A DNA stretch of 64,000 nucleotides, from contig CAXXDQ010000004.1 in NCBI GenBank assembly GCA_963664325.2, positions 480,001 to 544,000 of the forward strand, in the 5' to 3' direction. The first letter of the stretch is position 1. Every line of letters begins with the position of its first letter. Position numbers and translations under genes: made by a program. Below are positions 17,837 to 26,190 of this stretch, one piece after another. This DNA comes from Desulfomonilia bacterium (GTDB lineage Bacteria; Desulfobacterota; Desulfomonilia; UBA1062). The notes beneath the pieces were generated by a model that saw nothing but the letters and a program-made list of their open reading frames with translations, had not been told where the DNA came from and ran no database searches.

Positions 17837-19585
17837 TTAGTTTAACTTCAATAAATGTATCTTAGACTCGTTTTGCATGTCCCATGGGTTATCCGTAACG
17901 CAAATAAGTCCCGTGCTGCCATCAGGCATGATGAAGATACTTTTCGGGCTATATTTTTTTAATTCATCATTTACATATGACTGGTAAAGAATATCGCCGG
18001 TTTTGTCTGTTTTAAAAACATGTGCGCTTTTCAGAAAGTACGGACTTGATGCGAAAACGAGATCTTCATTGGCTGTTTGAGTTATGTATGATTTTCCATG
18101 CAAATTATTTCCGATAATCTTATATGAAGCAACTTGTCCATTATTCGAAACCCATGTTATTTTACCGGTTTCCTCATTAAAATTTGATAAGCTGACATTC
18201 TCAACCCTTTGCCAGCCTGCAAGAATCATATTCCCGTCAGCGCTTTCAAATATCGAGGTAATGTTTTCATCCTTATTGAGAATCCAATTGTTTTCCAGCA
18301 CCAAGGTTCCTTGCAAATCCAGTTTGAAATAGTAATCATTAAAGAAGCTGTCCCAACCGCCGTTATCCAGGCCTTTTCTGGCGCCGCCTGCTGAAACAAG
18401 ACAGCCATCGCCTGACTGTATGATTGAAAAAGGCTCTTCTATATACAGCCTTTCGCTTTCCCATTCCCATTTCTTGTCCCCATTTCTATCAACCTTTATT
18501 ACCGTCAGACTGTAATCATCAGATATACCTAGAATAAAATCGTGATCCCCTGTTTCAATGACTTCCACGTTATTTTCCGCACCATTTTCTACTAAGCCGA
18601 CAGCTCTTTCCCAAACGACACTTCCCTGTTCATCCGTCTTCACAATATATGCCTGTTTACCGCCTTCAGATCCCGGAATCCCTGAGGAATCGGATATCCC
18701 GGCCGCAATGAATCCTCCGTCCGAGGTTTGTTTGATTGAATAGAAATAATCCATTCCCGTTCCGCCGAAAGGCTTCTCCCATAAAAGGCTGCCGTTTGAA
18801 TCAATTCTTGCCGCATAAGCATCATAGCAAAATCCGGAGGGATTATGATTTGCATGCCTGTTGAAATAATAGCAGGGGAGATTTCCTGCTATGACGAATC
18901 CGCCGTCCTTAGCCGGAGCGCATGCGCTGACTTCAACATAACTGCTTGTCCTGAAGGAAACCGCCGGGACGTGAACCAGCCTTGAATATGAATAGTTAAC
19001 CTGTACGCCAGGTTTGTCTGCGTGGCTGCCTTTGGCCCTGACCTCTATTTCATTCATGCCCGTATCATCGATACCGGGAGTGAAGTCATAGGTCTTTCCT
19101 GTGCCGACCAGTGTTCCGTTAATGTACCACTCATAATTGAAATTCCCTGTTGGATAAACCTGTGCCTCTATCCTGCTTGTCTGTCCGGCCTCGAATACAG
19201 ACCTGCTGTCGGTCATGGTTACGCCCCTGACGATTACTTCCCATTTGGCGTAACCAAGAGCATACAAGCCATCTCCCGGTACATAACCCATTGCCCTGCA
19301 TGAAATATTATTGATCCCGACATACTCCTTTGTCGGGATGAAATATGCCGTTGATCTTTTTAGCGGGCTTGAATATCTTTCAAACATACTGTTGATTTTG
19401 TCTGGAATATCCCATTCAATGTCGCAGAACATCCATGGTTCTGTTGCAACGGTCGTCGCTGAAAAGGCAAGCGGTTCCCCGACATTTATAATGATGGTTT
19501 TATCTGAAGACGGGCTGCTTTTAAAGCATCCGCAGAGTACAGTACAAATCAGAAATAGTGCAATAATCACGCTGATCCGCTTCAT
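17837..19585 (-). CDS. Lipoprotein with Ig-like and beta-propeller repeat domains
   Basis: Lipobox LCGC; YEWYING Ig-like segment; DGGF..AG / D.NG..LWEK repeats. Confidence 0.75.
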   Translation of the reverse strand: MKRISVIIALFLICTVLCGCFKSSPSSDKTIIINVGEPLAFSATTVATEPWMFCDIEWDIPDKINSMFERYSSPLKRSTAYFIPTKEYVGINNISCRAMGYVPGDGLYALGYAKWEVIVRGVTMTDSRSVFEAGQTSRIEAQVYPTGNFNYEWYINGTLVGTGKTYDFTPGIDDTGMNEIEVRAKGSHADKPGVQVNYSYSRLVHVPAVSFRTSSYVEVSACAPAKDGGFVIAGNLPCYYFNRHANHNPSGFCYDAYAARIDSNGSLLWEKPFGGTGMDYFYSIKQTSDGGFIAAGISDSSGIPGSEGGKQAYIVKTDEQGSVVWERAVGLVENGAENNVEVIETGDHDFILGISDDYSLTVIKVDRNGDKKWEWESERLYIEEPFSIIQSGDGCLVSAGGARKGLDNGGWDSFFNDYYFKLDLQGTLVLENNWILNKDENITSIFESADGNMILAGWQRVENVSLSNFNEETGKITWVSNNGQVASYKIIGNNLHGKSYITQTANEDLVFASSPYFLKSAHVFKTDKTGDILYQSYVNDELKKYSPKSIFIMPDGSTGLICVTDNPWDMQNESKIHLLKLN

Positions 19586-19959
19586 GACATTATCCTCCCA
19601 TGAAATCATTATATTTTATTAGCCAGGGAAATTCGTCCGGCTGATTAAATATCCCTCCATCCTGCTAATAATCAAACATGCAACAAGCAAAAAAAGAAAC
19701 ATTAATAATAAAGAAGCCGATATAACATAATACATAATGTTTGAGCTTATTGCTTATGTCAACACAGGTGTTATTAAAAAATTACTTTCCGGTCCTTTCA
19801 GTGTTTCAGCCGTTCGCAATCAGCGAATATGTATCTCTATAATATATGCTGGCGAGGCTGGAATAAATAACCAGCCGATGCGCATGGATTTTTGATATCG
19901 TGTTCTTTTGTAAAGGAAGTTTTTCCAGGTAAGAAATAACGGACCAGACCCTAATCAAC

Positions 19960-21110: not shown

Positions 21111-24008
21111 TCAAGAGTGAACGTCCCAAGAGTCCCCGCCTTTTTGTGTTCCCTTATATAAAAAATTAGGAAATGGTGAATAAAAACCTTCTCCCACTAC
21201 ATCGATGTTTGTAACAGGCATATTGTGTTCTATCCCCCATCCAAGAATTGTAAGAATTCCGTTAGTCGCACGAGCAGCTTCAACTGCTCTCGATTCTTGG
21301 TTCAACATAATTATAAGTTTCAGTGGTATCCCGTAGATTTTATGGAGACGTATAATAGTTTCCCAGAATCGGCAAAGCTCACGGAAACTTGTCTGATCAA
21401 GCTCAAGAGCAGGATCGTCCATGATGATGCATGGATGATGAAAACGGCCATATGTCAGATACCGGGTGAAAAACCATGCGAGACCTAGCAAATGCATTTC
21501 GGAATGATTAAGAATGTAGCGCGCCAGCCTTCCGTTAACTTGTATGGAAGACGATTTTTCTCCCTTTTTTATCTCAGCTTTGATGCCTGGTTTGTCTGGA
21601 TAAATCCATGGGGCGGACGTCATATAAAAAGCAATTTCATACCAGAGTTTTTCAAGAGTATTGGGTAAATGATCCTGAACGATTGATCCAAGAGTCTTTT
21701 TCAATCTGTCCTTCACTGGCTTCCAATTGTCCGGGGATTCGAAGGTCCTTTCCGCTTCAGTGAATGTATCTATGATTTTCTGAGTAACGAGATCTGCTTC
21801 AGATTCTGCCTGTGCTTTATTGGGAATTGAAGGAATCCGGCATACTCTTTTTATATCATCTAATAATATTTCTCGTTGTTCTTTTATTCCGATCCAGTCT
21901 GCAATCGAGGTATTTGATGGAACAAACCATTGAAATGCTACAGTCAGGCGTGTCTGATCTTCATTATTCAAAGGGCATTGCAATTGTCCCGATAAACTCA
22001 TTTCTTTTTGGATACTTTCAATATCGGATTTGAGTTGAGAATATTCGCCTAATTTTTTATCGCGCTCTGCTTCTGTTTTTGCTTTGAGGGATTGCACGAC
22101 TTTTAATATCCCCCCATGTTCCTCATGTCTTGCCCCACAAGTTGGACAATCGTCAGGATGGCTTTTTGACCAGGTTTCCCGGATAAAGGCATCGACTTGA
22201 GTCAGGTGATCATAGTGCGTGCGTATGTTACGGCCTTCTTCTAAAATCCTTGCTTGTTCCTTTTGTAATGAACTCAATCGTTCGGAAAATGTTTTATTTT
22301 CAGCCTGGGCGGAATTTGCTGGGGCCTGTTTTCTTTTTTCAAGCCATTCACCCCATATTGTTAACTGGGAAATCGAGTTATCGATTTCTTTGCGTACAGG
22401 TTCGATGATTATTTCAGCATTCTTAACGAGTTCTTTTGATCTTAATACCAAGTCATTATAAAGATTTAGATAACTGGTAATGTTATTTATCATGCGATCT
22501 TTATCAGGATACGCATATGCGATTGACTTTGCAATATCGCCCCGGTTTTCATTGTCTCCCCATGTATGCCAAGATGCTGATAAATTGCTTTGTCTGATTT
22601 CGCCTATCGATTTTTCAGCCGTTTCCAGCCATGAAACAAACACATCCGGAAAAACAGGCAGGGATTTGTCGATCTCTTTTTTTACTATCCTTTCATATGC
22701 GGTGTCGATTTTTGTAATTGCAGAACTCAGGTCGTTTTCTTTCAGAAAATCCTGTCGTTTCTTGTTTGCCTGTATCATGCGGCTATCCGTGAATTCTTCA
22801 ACATGCTCAGCCAGGCCTGAATATCCAAGCAGAATACGCGCACCAAGTTCGGATGAAGACATGTTGGTAAATTCAAGGCTTGCAACCTGGGTGAGAATTG
22901 TACCGGACATCTCCAAGTTGGCTTTTGCAGCCGTTTCTGCTTTATCGACCGGACGGATTGCTTCAAGAGGCTGTCCATTCAAAGAAACTTCCGGCGTTGA
23001 ACCGACTTTTAACGGAGACAAGTATTTGATGTATTCCTTGTCTCGATTTACTGCGGAGATATCTTTTTCAAACGTTTTATCCGAGAACATCCTGTAACGA
23101 TATGACGATCCGAACAATGCAAAAGACATGGCTTCGCATATGCTGCTTTTGCCGGTCCCGTTCGGGCCGTGAATGATGCTGACTGCAACCGGTTTGGAAT
23201 TAAAATTGAGATGAATATCACTAATATTCCGGAAACTTTTAATACGTATATCATTGATCCCGTATGTTTTGTTTGGTCTGTTTTCTTCCTTATTCATGAA
23301 TTCTTTTGAAGGGTTGTATTTATGCATGGACTGAATCACTTCTCTGGCGTAATCCTGCTGCTCTGGCTTGGAAAATCCCTTTTCGAAGTTTGTCATGGCT
23401 GTCTTAACCTTGTCATCCGCGCTCATCCATGTCTCAATCTCTTCTATTTTCTTTTTTTTGAGTATGCTGCGTACAGTCAATAAAAGATGCGGAAAATCCA
23501 TTTCCGAAAATCTGGGGGCACTTGAATCGTCAATGAAGGTCACATCAAACGAAAGCTCTTCGGAAAAACCGGTTTCGCTCCGTATTGATACAATTCCATC
23601 AATCCAAGTTTTTTGATCCGGTTCATTGACAAGCCAGTGAAGAATGATTCTCCATGAACCATTTTTGTCGCAATCTCCGGTTGGAGAACCGATATAATTT
23701 CTTTCCGCTGTTAACTGTGATCTGATTCCCAGAGCGCGTTTTATTTGTTTACGGGTTTTAGTTTTTTTATCAAACGAAAGCAGATAATAGAGGATTCCGA
23801 TTTCCGGATCAATTATCAATACTGCCGGATTGACATCCGATCCTTCAGGAACGCTGGTGAGATCTTCTTCGGAGACATCCATCCATTGAGGTGCATTCAT
23901 GCCGGAAGAGTCTGTGCGAATTGCAGCCAATTCAATTTCCAGGTTTTTACGATAGAGTTCGGTTATGGCTTCCTTGCAGGTACGGAGTATATCTTTGTTC
24001 TGAATCAT
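21111..24008 (-). CDS. Rad50/SbcC-like ABC ATPase with ~245-aa N-terminal extension (LmuB-like)
   Basis: Walker A GPNGTGKS, coiled coils, CPTCG zinc hook, degenerate signature LNHSE, Walker B/D-loop IIMDDP. Confidence 0.85.
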   Translation of the reverse strand: MIQNKDILRTCKEAITELYRKNLEIELAAIRTDSSGMNAPQWMDVSEEDLTSVPEGSDVNPAVLIIDPEIGILYYLLSFDKKTKTRKQIKRALGIRSQLTAERNYIGSPTGDCDKNGSWRIILHWLVNEPDQKTWIDGIVSIRSETGFSEELSFDVTFIDDSSAPRFSEMDFPHLLLTVRSILKKKKIEEIETWMSADDKVKTAMTNFEKGFSKPEQQDYAREVIQSMHKYNPSKEFMNKEENRPNKTYGINDIRIKSFRNISDIHLNFNSKPVAVSIIHGPNGTGKSSICEAMSFALFGSSYRYRMFSDKTFEKDISAVNRDKEYIKYLSPLKVGSTPEVSLNGQPLEAIRPVDKAETAAKANLEMSGTILTQVASLEFTNMSSSELGARILLGYSGLAEHVEEFTDSRMIQANKKRQDFLKENDLSSAITKIDTAYERIVKKEIDKSLPVFPDVFVSWLETAEKSIGEIRQSNLSASWHTWGDNENRGDIAKSIAYAYPDKDRMINNITSYLNLYNDLVLRSKELVKNAEIIIEPVRKEIDNSISQLTIWGEWLEKRKQAPANSAQAENKTFSERLSSLQKEQARILEEGRNIRTHYDHLTQVDAFIRETWSKSHPDDCPTCGARHEEHGGILKVVQSLKAKTEAERDKKLGEYSQLKSDIESIQKEMSLSGQLQCPLNNEDQTRLTVAFQWFVPSNTSIADWIGIKEQREILLDDIKRVCRIPSIPNKAQAESEADLVTQKIIDTFTEAERTFESPDNWKPVKDRLKKTLGSIVQDHLPNTLEKLWYEIAFYMTSAPWIYPDKPGIKAEIKKGEKSSSIQVNGRLARYILNHSEMHLLGLAWFFTRYLTYGRFHHPCIIMDDPALELDQTSFRELCRFWETIIRLHKIYGIPLKLIIMLNQESRAVEAARATNGILTILGWGIEHNMPVTNIDVVGEGFYSPFPNFLYKGTQKGGDSWDVHS

Positions 24009-25645
24009 AAATCCCCCAACGTTATTTCATTTATATCACTTCCTTTAGCGAAACGCGGTAAAGAAATCTCTCGTGCAACGATTTCCTTGAGTTCATTTTT
24101 TGTGTTATTGTCTATATTACCGGATGAATCCGGAGTAAGGAATAAAACTGATAATTTATCAAATTTCCCTGCACCGGATGTTTTGATGGAGTCAATCAGC
24201 GGCCTCAATCCCTGAAGGTCGTTTGGTTTATCACCCCATGCTGGAACAGGAATGACAAGGTGAGTATTCTGATACAAACCTCCGGGAAATGTTTTATAGT
24301 CCCATTTATCTCCATGGCTTGAATTAATAAGACCAGCTAGAAGTCGCGCTGCTGCTTTCAGCTCAGGACGACTGATGCTGCGAATTGTCCATGGAATATG
24401 TTCATCTCTACTTTCAAGATGAATATCATCAATTGATATGGTTTCACAGCTATCGCCTCTAATGCATTCGACTAGGCCACATCTCCAGCACAAACGAACC
24501 CATACCGGAAGTAAATTGTCTGCCCATTGGATAACGAAAGGCTGATCATCAGGTGGATTTTCAATTCGAGAGCGAATGTCTTGTATTGCCGGTTTGTCAC
24601 TATCATTCGCCCATAAATCTAGGCAATCAACAGCATAAAGAGACTGAAGCCAAAGGAATAAAACGTCTGTATCCAAGTTTGCCTGATTTACATCAATATG
24701 AACGTTGTTTTTTCCCTTGCCATAAAAACCGGCAAGACGTGTATGACCTTCACTGTTGAAAGTTACATCTATTATGCTTAATTCATCATCAGGCAAGGAG
24801 TGTCGATCTGTTAAATTTGGGCAAATATTTGTTTGCATATAATCAAGAAGATATTGTTCCGATACTTTCCATCCGGCAATCACAAACGGATGGCTGCTCA
24901 GTTTTTCACAAAGCGAAGCAAAAATGAATTGTTGAGTTCCTGTATTAAATGTTGTCGTGTCTAAACTATTTAATTCTGTTTCGGTAATGAGAAACCTTTT
25001 TGAAGATGTCAGGGCTTCAGCATAATGCCCGCTTTTTTCATATTCTTCAGCTTTTTCCAAAGCATTTACGCAACCGTGTGGTTTTATTACTTTCACACTA
25101 GCGGTTTCTCCCATGCCGGCACAGTCTTGGGCTGTAATAAATGTGCGAAAGACGGTAGGCCATGGGAGCATTTCATCAGTCCCGTCATGTTTGATCCCTA
25201 CGTTTTCCAAAGCACTTTCCTGGATACAGTCCCAGTTCAAAGACCATATCTGCTCCCACAGGCTTTCACGCGCAAATCTCGCAATAACCCGGTGTCTTGG
25301 CGTATTCCTCGCAGGAGAAACACAGCCATGCCAACAAGTATCGGTAGTGATATTCAACGACTTCGCCAATTCCAATTTAGGATTGCGGCTACCGTTTGTT
25401 GAAAGATGATTATAAACCTCGTCAGCCCACTTATATAGATAATCCCATGGCAATGGCGGTGTGCTTGACAAAGATGCATTAAATCTGAGTACAATTTCCG
25501 CATTCGTGCGTTTTTGCTCTAGAAGGCTTGGTGGGCTCGGAATAAGGCCATATGACATACCCGCACCAATTAATAAAACTGATTTTCGATGTTCGCGATT
25601 TCCAATACCACGTAGCATTGGAAAGTTATGTGGGATAACTGGCAT
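24005..25645 (-). CDS. SIR2-like domain protein (putative NADase defence effector)
   Basis: LLIGAGMS, WSLNWD..ESAL, VIKPHG, VIAGW motifs; 4-bp ATGA overlap with the ATPase. Confidence 0.8.
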   Translation of the reverse strand: MPVIPHNFPMLRGIGNREHRKSVLLIGAGMSYGLIPSPPSLLEQKRTNAEIVLRFNASLSSTPPLPWDYLYKWADEVYNHLSTNGSRNPKLELAKSLNITTDTCWHGCVSPARNTPRHRVIARFARESLWEQIWSLNWDCIQESALENVGIKHDGTDEMLPWPTVFRTFITAQDCAGMGETASVKVIKPHGCVNALEKAEEYEKSGHYAEALTSSKRFLITETELNSLDTTTFNTGTQQFIFASLCEKLSSHPFVIAGWKVSEQYLLDYMQTNICPNLTDRHSLPDDELSIIDVTFNSEGHTRLAGFYGKGKNNVHIDVNQANLDTDVLFLWLQSLYAVDCLDLWANDSDKPAIQDIRSRIENPPDDQPFVIQWADNLLPVWVRLCWRCGLVECIRGDSCETISIDDIHLESRDEHIPWTIRSISRPELKAAARLLAGLINSSHGDKWDYKTFPGGLYQNTHLVIPVPAWGDKPNDLQGLRPLIDSIKTSGAGKFDKLSVLFLTPDSSGNIDNNTKNELKEIVAREISLPRFAKGSDINEITLGDL

Positions 25646-25831
25646 GATAATTAAACCCCAAAAATATAATATATCAATTTATATATTAAAATGCATAATT
25701 ATAGCAGAATGTCAAAAATTAAATACTTACGATCCTTTGTATGACAGATGATTTAGAAAGATTCATTCTTGAAAAATATTAACCTTGATGTTGATTCGCC
25801 ATATAAACTCAAAATTAAAATAATCATATGA

Positions 25832-25886
25832 ACATAACGATCTGAGTCATGGCAGGCGGAATCATCCACCTGCCGTGCTGTTCTCC
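25832..25886 (-). mobile_element. attC-like hairpin upstream of the SIR2 module
   Basis: CACGGCAGGTGGA/TCCGCCTGCCATG stem then GACTCAGATC-GTTATGT (R'-like); R'' poor. Confidence 0.4.
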
Positions 25887-25888
25887 GA

Positions 25889-26190
25889 TCATTCCATATA
25901 CGGATCGACGAAGGAGATATCGGCCGACTGGTCGGAGAGGTTCTCTTTGGTAAACGGCTTCATAATGTATTTATCGGCGAATGCTGCTAGGAACCGGTTC
26001 ATGCCGAACCACGTGTCAGCGAGCTGCTCCTTTTTCATATCCAGTATGCTGCGATAATAGTCGAGGGCTTTTTCGCGCTCTCCCATCAGGTCGCATGCCA
26101 TGCCCGCAATGAGGCGGCTGTGGCCGAGTTCGCAGAACGACTGCTTTTTCTTAAGAAACTTTTCGATTTCCGTGTGAGCCAGGGATGCTG
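25889..26190 (-). pseudogene. C-terminal fragment of a TPR protein
   Basis: G.A.DLMG.REKA..YY TPR-like motif; frame open upstream of the listed Met with no RBS; abuts the GH gene. Confidence 0.5.

Follow-up and report, generated by a model that had tools for sequence, protein, structure and literature searches.

Within a 64,000-nucleotide stretch of a Desulfomonilia bacterium genome (GenBank assembly GCA_963664325.2, contig CAXXDQ010000004.1, positions 480,001 to 544,000; hereafter the window) lies a pair of overlapping minus-strand genes that is most likely an undescribed two-gene form of a Lamassu-type anti-phage suicide system. Gene 1 (24005..25645, with its stop codon at 24005-24007) is an open reading frame (ORF) for a putative SIR2-like effector of 546 amino acids (aa), and gene 2 (21111..24008) encodes, to judge from its ORF and its Pfam and PADLOC matches, a 965-aa zinc-hook SMC/Rad50/LmuB-like ABC ATPase; parts of the pair are given below in window coordinates and lie on the same strand. 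That the pair is a defence system is well supported by sequence comparison. That it is a self-contained, horizontally moving abortive-infection system of the Lamassu/ABC three-component (ABC-3C) kind, belonging to the large Rad50/SbcC-like branch, seems to us probable rather than assured.

An earlier, sequence-only reading of this DNA had proposed a candidate atypical Lamassu/ABC-3C-like system, to be checked with PADLOC and by a survey of neighbourhood conservation. Much of that proposal has held: the pair behaves as a mobile unit, the effector has a predicted NADase fold, the ATPase has LmuB-like motifs and defence genes lie close to a third of the related loci. A specific profile match to LmuB or LmuA, on the other hand, was not obtained. 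In PADLOC the LmuB models do match the ATPase, unspecifically since SbcC proteins score equally, and the SIR2 protein matches nothing.

The SIR2 protein

The SIR2 fold claimed for gene 1 was confirmed by structure prediction. An AlphaFold2 model built on the family alignment (mean predicted local distance difference test score, pLDDT, 89.7; predicted template modelling score, pTM, 0.92) returned KomC (Kongming), ThsA (Thoeris), SIR2-HerA, DSR2 and SPARSA as its top Foldseek matches in the PDB, with E from 1.7e-7 and a probability of 1.00, and every top match is an anti-phage SIR2 NADase. The SIR2 (Rossmann) domain covers residues ~1-320 (24686..25645), as delimited by invariant motifs and by a fold match over about 330-350 columns. 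Invariant in all 30 aligned family members are G27, G29 and S31 of the GAGMS motif (residues 27-31, 25553-25567), N137, W138 and D139 of LNWD (N137 at 25235-25237) and K188, P189, H190 and G191 of KPHG (H190 at 25076-25078). N137 and H190 are the presumed counterparts of N112 and H152 of ThsA. The model and these residues support the prediction that the gene 1 product folds like the SIR2 NADases of defence systems and keeps its catalytic motifs intact.

Searches with the protein gave about 150 homologue matches, the full-length form being ~540 aa long; the window protein itself matched nothing in Pfam, PADLOC or NCBIfam (E<=1). Among the matches listed, 27 of 120 homologues carry PF13289 (SIR2_2), all of them at most 41% identical to the window protein. 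Membership of the window protein in PF13289 is thus only transitive, because its homologues carry the domain and it does not. As a side observation, the PADLOC candidate family PDC-S65 was weakly matched by 10 of the 30 aligned family members, at a best E of 1.6e-4, and not by the window protein.

The ~200-aa C-terminal tail noted earlier proved to be a folded domain, conserved in the family and about 220 aa long (residues ~321-546, 24008..24685), delimited from the alignment and from a DSSP assignment of the model. Many of its positions show no variation among the 30 aligned members. Its predicted structure comprises three helices, a long ordered loop with an acidic RDEHIPW stretch (~413-419), a further helix and a small beta-sheet, and its conserved columns are W382, C386, D414, H416, P418, R426, P454, G455, P466 and P468. 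When the domain was searched alone, all 68 matches belonged to the same SIR2 family. Swapping of effectors, as is typical of Lamassu, was thus not observed: the domain was found with this SIR2 family only.

The ATPase

Both the ORF and its motifs agree with the earlier description of gene 2 as encoding a 965-aa ABC ATPase with a CPTCG hook. Pfam recognised SMC_N (covering residues 251-317) and AAA_23, and the ABC ATPase part starts at residue ~248. The N-terminal half of the head (22809..23267) contains the Walker A motif GPNGTGKS (residues 281-288, 23145-23168) and the Q-loop residue Q374; N283, G284, G286 and K287 of Walker A, like Q374, are kept in all 32 aligned ATPase members. Then comes an arm region (residues ~400-800, 21612..22808), a putative coiled coil in view of its low conservation in the alignment, which bears at mid-arm the CPTC zinc hook (residues 621-624, 22137-22148). 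The full motif reads CPTCG (621-625) and is the single CxxC of the protein, and C621 and C624 are kept in 32/32.

The C-terminal half of the head (21114..21611) holds the signature LNHSE (residues 833-837, 21498-21512), the Walker B motif IIMDD (residues 860-865, 21414-21431), the D-loop residue D871 and the H-loop position. The signature, which had been singled out as unusual, matches a family consensus of LNxAE that has no GG, with N834 and E837 in 32/32. Walker B and the D-loop together read hhhhDDPAQEMD, with D864 and D871 in 32/32 and D865 in 31/32. The replacement of the H-loop His is real in the window protein, where position 903 (21300-21302) is Asn, and applies to a subclade only: among the 32 members the residue is His in 22, Asn in eight (the window protein included), Glu in one and Arg in one. 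Since His is kept in 22/32, its loss is lineage-specific and not a trait of the family. An exhaustive phmmer search of 1.84 billion representatives found 233 ATPase relatives (E<=1e-3), of which about a hundred are full-length (~945 aa) and align from the first residues.

Conservation and mobility of the pair

Scanning the SIR2 alignment against one genome per species gave 21 loci. In 18 of these the SIR2 homologue is followed immediately by an ATPase homologue, complete or cut by a contig end, so the survey of the neighbourhood bore out the pairing; two of the remaining three (L006 and L013) are cut at the contig edge and the third (L010) is a 167-aa remnant. An all-against-all comparison of the ORFs in the loci recovered two shared gene families only, the other clusters being antisense shadows within both genes. 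In a metagenome scan with the ATPase alignment, generic Walker A matches diluted the result; it yielded four full-length loci that are independent of one another and include upstream DNA, and in all four a SIR2 gene precedes the ATPase gene. The intergenic distance is -49 to +12 nucleotides (nt) in 14 of 14 related loci measured, and the pairwise identities of the two proteins are correlated (r = 0.97; 105 pairs, 15 loci), a value that kinship among the loci inflates.

Host genomes belong to at least five phyla and include Verrucomicrobiota, Acidobacteriota, Bacteroidota, Campylobacterota, and Gamma- and Betaproteobacteria. Closer to the window, the SIR2 gene was found in none of 40 relatives searched, three genomes of the same genus among them. 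The distribution and the constant gene order support the view that the SIR2 and ATPase genes form a conserved, mobile unit that was probably acquired horizontally.

Several copies are damaged. The ATPase is split into two ORFs in L002 (9635-12504), L010 (8001-8504) keeps only the 167-aa SIR2 remnant and no ATPase, and in L020 (8106-11985) both genes are in pieces; these copies may reflect decay or indel errors of long-read assemblies. Three further loci (L036, L037 and L038) lie on a single metagenome contig of 28,226 bases, which is a perfect tandem of three copies with a period of 9,379 bases and a positional identity of 1.0. Each copy contains the SIR2-ATPase pair together with EamA, LysR, aconitase-piece and cupin genes. 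This contig probably arose through faulty assembly or through recent tandem duplication; its reading as a small plasmid was dropped, the other genes being of chromosomal types.

Defence genes near related loci

Of the 133 flanking ORFs (>=150 aa, within 6.5 kb) of the 21 loci, 116 were compared with PADLOC models at E<=1e-10, 17 distal ORFs being left out. Established defence components (restriction-modification (RM), Wadjet, DRT, TIR and HEC-01) occur within 6.5 kb in 7/21 loci, which is a raw count, and two of the seven, L014 and L016, are related loci. The neighbours concerned are a DRT reverse transcriptase (L005), a type II RM system (L007), an Snf2/HKD helicase, a type IIG RM enzyme and PsyrA (L014 and L016, the former with HEC-01 in addition), a TIR-domain protein (L021), JetC and JetD (L035), and a DrmD-like helicase with a type III RM system (L039). 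Counting any PADLOC match raises the number to 15 loci, eight of which have candidate-family or weak matches only, and leaves six loci with none.

Directly upstream of the pair in L011 (3380-7855) lie an SbcD-like gene (376 aa), a gene for a 785-aa zinc-hook SbcC/Rad50-like ATPase and a PDC-S23 candidate gene. The 785-aa protein matches LmuB models; we rejected it as a defence gene and counted it as SbcCD in view of its SGGE-like and DE motifs and its SbcD-like neighbour.

Comparison with Lamassu and SbcCD

The best PADLOC models for the ATPase are LmuB models (PDLC03859, E 8.4e-17, residues 250-883, 59.6 bits), and PDLC03859 is matched by 32/32 ATPase members, with a best E of 2.7e-20. As controls we took five SbcC proteins whose genes adjoin SbcD genes (loci L024, L025, L029, L030 and L033) and scored them on PDLC03865 and PDLC03859, where they reach 57-126 bits. 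Since housekeeping SbcC scores alike, a lone LmuB match in this range is no evidence for Lamassu. These scores agree with section 11 of the Lamassu survey of Haudiquet et al. 2025 (PMC12663957), in which long LmuB proteins are described as close relatives of SbcC.

Motifs are more telling. The five controls have an LSGGE signature, a Walker B and D-loop of the form hhhDEGFGSLD and a Ser-His H-loop. A large LmuB called by PADLOC in another genome, G346, has an FSDAQ signature and reads IFIDDPVQQMD. The derived motifs, DDPxQxMD and a signature without GG, are thus common to our ATPase family and the G346 LmuB and are not found in the five SbcC controls. These shared derived motifs, rather than specific profile matches, support kinship of the ATPase with the large Lamassu branch.

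According to section 5 of PMC12663957, long Lamassu LmuB is marked by a Walker B of the form hhhhDD and by one CxxC only, and Sir2 is among the effectors. The ATPase has both marks, along with an SMC/Rad50-like head in two halves. In section 11 of the same survey the C-terminal domains of long LmuA proteins are said to be made up of helices, a conserved loop of acidic character and a beta-sheet, a verbal description that the model of the SIR2 C-terminal domain qualitatively resembles. The LmuA-type layout is also present, with an N-terminal enzymatic domain and a C-terminal domain encoded upstream of the ATPase, a docking role for the latter being predicted only. Going by the portions of PMC12663957 and 10.1101/2025.03.14.643221 that deal with long Lamassu with Sir2, our pair and long Lamassu further have in common a patchy, defence-associated distribution. 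The pair differs from long Lamassu as portrayed there in that it has no lmuC gene, its ATPase carries a 245-aa N-terminal domain in which no similarity to MC1, LmuC or SbcD was detected, its effector C-terminal domain matches none of the known C-terminal domain (CTD) families or LmuA models and was not seen to be swapped between effectors, and its ATPase core is 720 aa rather than about 800 aa long.

Type I Lamassu of Bacillus (LmuA-LmuB; the short clade S) likewise has two genes and no LmuC, according to the relevant parts of 10.1101/2025.06.23.660979 and PMC12663957, and its effector C-terminal domain docks on the LmuB dimer, an arrangement that is only predicted for our pair. It differs in belonging to the short branch (about 600 aa), in its Cap4 nuclease effector, in its other Walker B motif and in having no N-terminal extension. 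With SbcCD and Rad50-Mre11 the pair shares a zinc-hook ABC ATPase with coiled-coil arms. Here, by contrast, the partner is a SIR2 protein and not an Mre11/SbcD-type nuclease, the signature is LNxAE and not LSGGE, Walker B ends in DD and not DE, and the genes are accessory and not core. The SIR2 systems Thoeris (ThsA), Kongming (KomC), SIR2-HerA, DSR2 and SPARSA have the fold and catalytic motifs of the effector, from which NAD+ depletion would be expected. Sensing in these systems falls to a SLOG domain, to KomB, to HerA, to a tail-tube-binding solenoid or to a pAgo, and in none of them to an SMC-like zinc-hook ATPase.

A search of the literature, which did not extend to the ABC-3C paper or the Lamassu supplements, found no description of the SIR2-ATPase pair, and the words "fused" and "fusion" have no occurrence in the main text of PMC12663957. 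The family may already have been counted among the long Lamassu-Sir2 systems.

The N-terminal domain of the ATPase and the middle component

Ahead of the ATPase head the sequence-only reading had pointed out a domain of ~245 aa and, around the pair, the absence of a separate small gene, and both statements stand. The alignment shows a real and conserved domain at residues 1-~225 (23334..24008), delimited by its conserved columns and matching no assigned family, which a variable linker (residues 226-247, 23268-23333) joins to the head. Its conserved columns are Y19, W42, D67, G71, D114, W119, W125, W135, R143, E150, E151, D155, R180 and W194. No small gene was found between or beside the two genes, either in the window or in any related locus. 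A reading of the acidic residues as a PD-(D/E)xK or other nuclease was considered, by eye only, and rejected as no motif fits.

Searches of 18 members of the domain at E<=10 against PADLOC (LmuC included) and Pfam (MComp1 included) gave scattered single matches only, and a profile search of PDB sequences found no match, the best E being 0.24. Free-standing homologues (134-429 aa) were sought as well, and the three matches were all fragments of the same ATPase. Such negatives are weak evidence, because the diversity of LmuC is reported to defeat sequence methods and only structures reveal how it is linked to SbcD (PMC12663957, section 11).

We consider it plausible that the middle component is fused to the ATPase as its N-terminal domain, because the large LmuB of G346 offers a precedent for an MC1-like N-terminal fusion. 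That genome carries a two-gene Lamassu (locus L034, 3631-9220) in which a PADLOC-called LmuA (PDLC03850) is followed by a 1237-aa LmuB (PDLC03861, E 7e-94). Across 401 genomes of the phylum MComp1 (PF20289) was matched nowhere but in the extra ~200-aa N-terminal region of this LmuB, at E 7.4e-4 and 9.7e-5, below the curated Pfam cut-off, which suggests a middle component fused to LmuB. In the passages of 10.1101/2025.03.14.643221 on middle components, the MC1-type LmuC, which resembles the C-terminus of Mre11, goes together with LmuB of larger size (800-1000 aa) and with CTD1-5.

The G346 system and our pair have in common an effector gene that overlaps a large LmuB gene, an N-terminal extra region of ~200 aa, a single CxxC, DDPxQxMD and a GG-less signature. 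They differ in that the G346 N-terminal region has its weak MComp1 match, the G346 effector is not SIR2 and the two N-terminal regions are unrelated by hhalign; when the G346 LmuA and LmuB are compared with the profiles of our families in this way, the Walker A region alone aligns. Beside the G346 genes lie RadC and a fragmentary R subunit of type I restriction.

Proposed mechanism and alternative explanations

In the solved short Lamassu complexes, as summarised in the structural portions of PMC12663957, 10.1101/2025.06.23.660979 and 10.1101/2025.03.14.643221, a single LmuA monomer is bound through its C-terminal domain to a dimer of LmuB, alone or together with LmuC, and DNA ends release LmuA, which forms an active tetramer. 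Defence SIR2 enzymes are switched on by oligomerisation, according to the titles and abstracts of SIR2 structure papers. From these two precedents we propose a mechanism for the pair. Two ATPase protomers would join via the zinc hook, and the dimer would hold a single SIR2 protein in an inactive state through docking of that protein's C-terminal domain. The ATPase's own N-terminal domain, which sits on its variable linker where lmuC is normally found, would most likely bridge the SIR2 C-terminal domain to the ATPase. The ATPase may sense DNA ends or replication intermediates of phages or plasmids, with sensing tuned by slow ATP turnover, which we propose because Walker B reads DD. The freed SIR2 protein would then oligomerise and deplete NAD+, and the infected cell would stop before phage release. 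All of this is reasoned by analogy: the binding, the sensing, the NADase activity and the part given to the N-terminal domain are inferred here.

Several observations weigh against placing the pair in Lamassu, besides the raw state of the neighbour count given above and the LmuB scores that the five SbcC controls equal or exceed (57-126 bits, against 59.6 for the ATPase). On the effector side, LmuA models in PADLOC were matched by 0/30 SIR2 family members, and the SIR2 C-terminal domain has no Pfam or PADLOC match and was found with no other effector domain; the SIR2 protein matches neither LmuA models nor ABC-3C CTD families, the precomputed Pfam annotation of the family being PF13289 or nothing. 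On the ATPase side, solved LmuB chains are absent among its sequence matches in the PDB, and its N-terminal domain is similar to no LmuC or middle-component model, with hhalign probabilities of 0.2% against the MC1-like end of the G346 LmuB and 0.6% against six SbcD proteins. As to mobility and context, no homologue was found in the plasmid, phage and IMG/VR collections searched, and there are no defence genes among the pair's own neighbours in the window.

These observations leave some room for a different ancestry. The pair could represent a separate third lineage of SMC-based immunity, derived from SbcC/Rad50 near the root of Lamassu or independently, in which a new N-terminal domain takes the place of the Mre11-derived middle component, as link or as sensor, in gating a SIR2 NADase; we regard this as somewhat unlikely. 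Unlikely as well is an independent defence system without Lamassu descent, in which an SbcC/Rad50-like ATPase was separately recruited to control a SIR2 NADase and the N-terminal domain is a new sensor or regulatory module and no equivalent of LmuC. Such an origin would suit the orphan status of both adaptor-like domains, the unmatched LmuA models, the failure of LmuB models to separate the ATPase from SbcC and the compactness and isolation of the ATPase family, with its 233 representatives at E<=1e-3; moreover, Sir2 effectors were acquired independently in long and short Lamassu (PMC12663957, section 5). However, DDPxQxMD and the GG-less signature are shared with the PADLOC-called large LmuB of G346 and not with SbcC, and the gene order (an effector with a C-terminal domain, then the ATPase) and the single hook fit long Lamassu.

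Under a further alternative the architecture is unchanged and the SIR2 protein is no bulk NADase, so that it would act on a protein or nucleic-acid target, by ADP-ribosylation or another modification, or the system's main function would be to restrict plasmids and not phages. SIR2 folds can carry out several chemistries, which counts in its favour, and the Vibrio Lamassu DdmABC restricts both plasmids and phages (PMC10586767 and 10.1101/2025.03.14.643221, in the parts concerned with that system). We nevertheless think it improbable, given that the best structural matches of the effector are all NAD+-depleting defence enzymes whose N and H residues are invariant here. A housekeeping or DNA-repair module, with an SbcCD-like machine whose nuclease is replaced or regulated by SIR2, could draw on the place of the ATPase within the zinc-hook SbcC/Rad50/LmuB group and on the finding that genome G000 has no SbcC-grade match to PDLC03865 at E<=1e-20, yet it is very improbable in the face of the missing SIR2 gene in 40/40 relatives, the patchy spread across phyla, the apparently decayed copies in L002, L010 and L020, the foreign composition, the nearby defence genes, the deviant signature and Walker B, and the lack of an Mre11/SbcD partner.

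Junction, composition and surroundings of the locus

On the minus strand the end of the SIR2 gene (...GAT TTA TGA) overlaps the start of the ATPase gene (ATG ATT CAG), and the letters ATGA at 24005..24008 are common to both, just as the sequence-only reading had described. Its remarks on an AT-rich pair among ordinary genes also hold. The GC content of the pair is 41.5%, compared with 49.0% across the remaining window, and a 500-nt profile gives 0.38-0.45 within the pair and 0.59-0.66 directly upstream; the window is heterogeneous, the 17.5-20 kb stretch being GC-low too. The flanking genes encode an MFS transporter, SUI1/YciH, DUF1456 and a sulfatase, alongside some ORFs without assignment. 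A search for flanking direct repeats or att-like sites around the pair found none.

Upstream of the SIR2 gene, an AT-rich intergenic region (25646..25888, minus strand, read from the sequence) is the candidate promoter site of the pair. A promoter scan of this region gave one weak sigma-70-like match (25850-25823) and fewer matches than in shuffles, and thus no convincing promoter. After the stop of a short upstream ORF (25889-26101) a GC-rich hairpin (GCAGGTGG...CCGCCTGC) occupies 25850-25885 on the minus strand, at the border between GC-rich upstream DNA and the AT-rich SIR2 leader. Another GC-poor stretch of the window (0.38-0.47), lying a few kb away, contains a minus-strand ORF of 590 aa (17837-19609) with a signal-peptide-like start and no Pfam match.

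Significance

Lamassu is among the commonest SMC-based immune systems, and the coupling of its sensor to diverse effectors is an active question. To our knowledge, all solved Lamassu complexes are from the short branch and have nuclease effectors. Because PADLOC-DB 2.0.0 lacks an effector model for this SIR2 family and two of the four domains have no Pfam model, annotation pipelines probably overlook the pair. Here the large Rad50-like branch is pared down to a minimum of two proteins, of which one is a SIR2 effector and the other has an extra domain built in. The pair would thus be a tractable case for learning how a zinc-hook ATPase gates an NADase, whether the middle component can be fused or replaced, and how SbcCD-like machines became immune sensors. 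Should the pair instead belong to a third lineage, this single polypeptide would show how an unrelated module can take over from the SbcD-derived adaptor of Lamassu.

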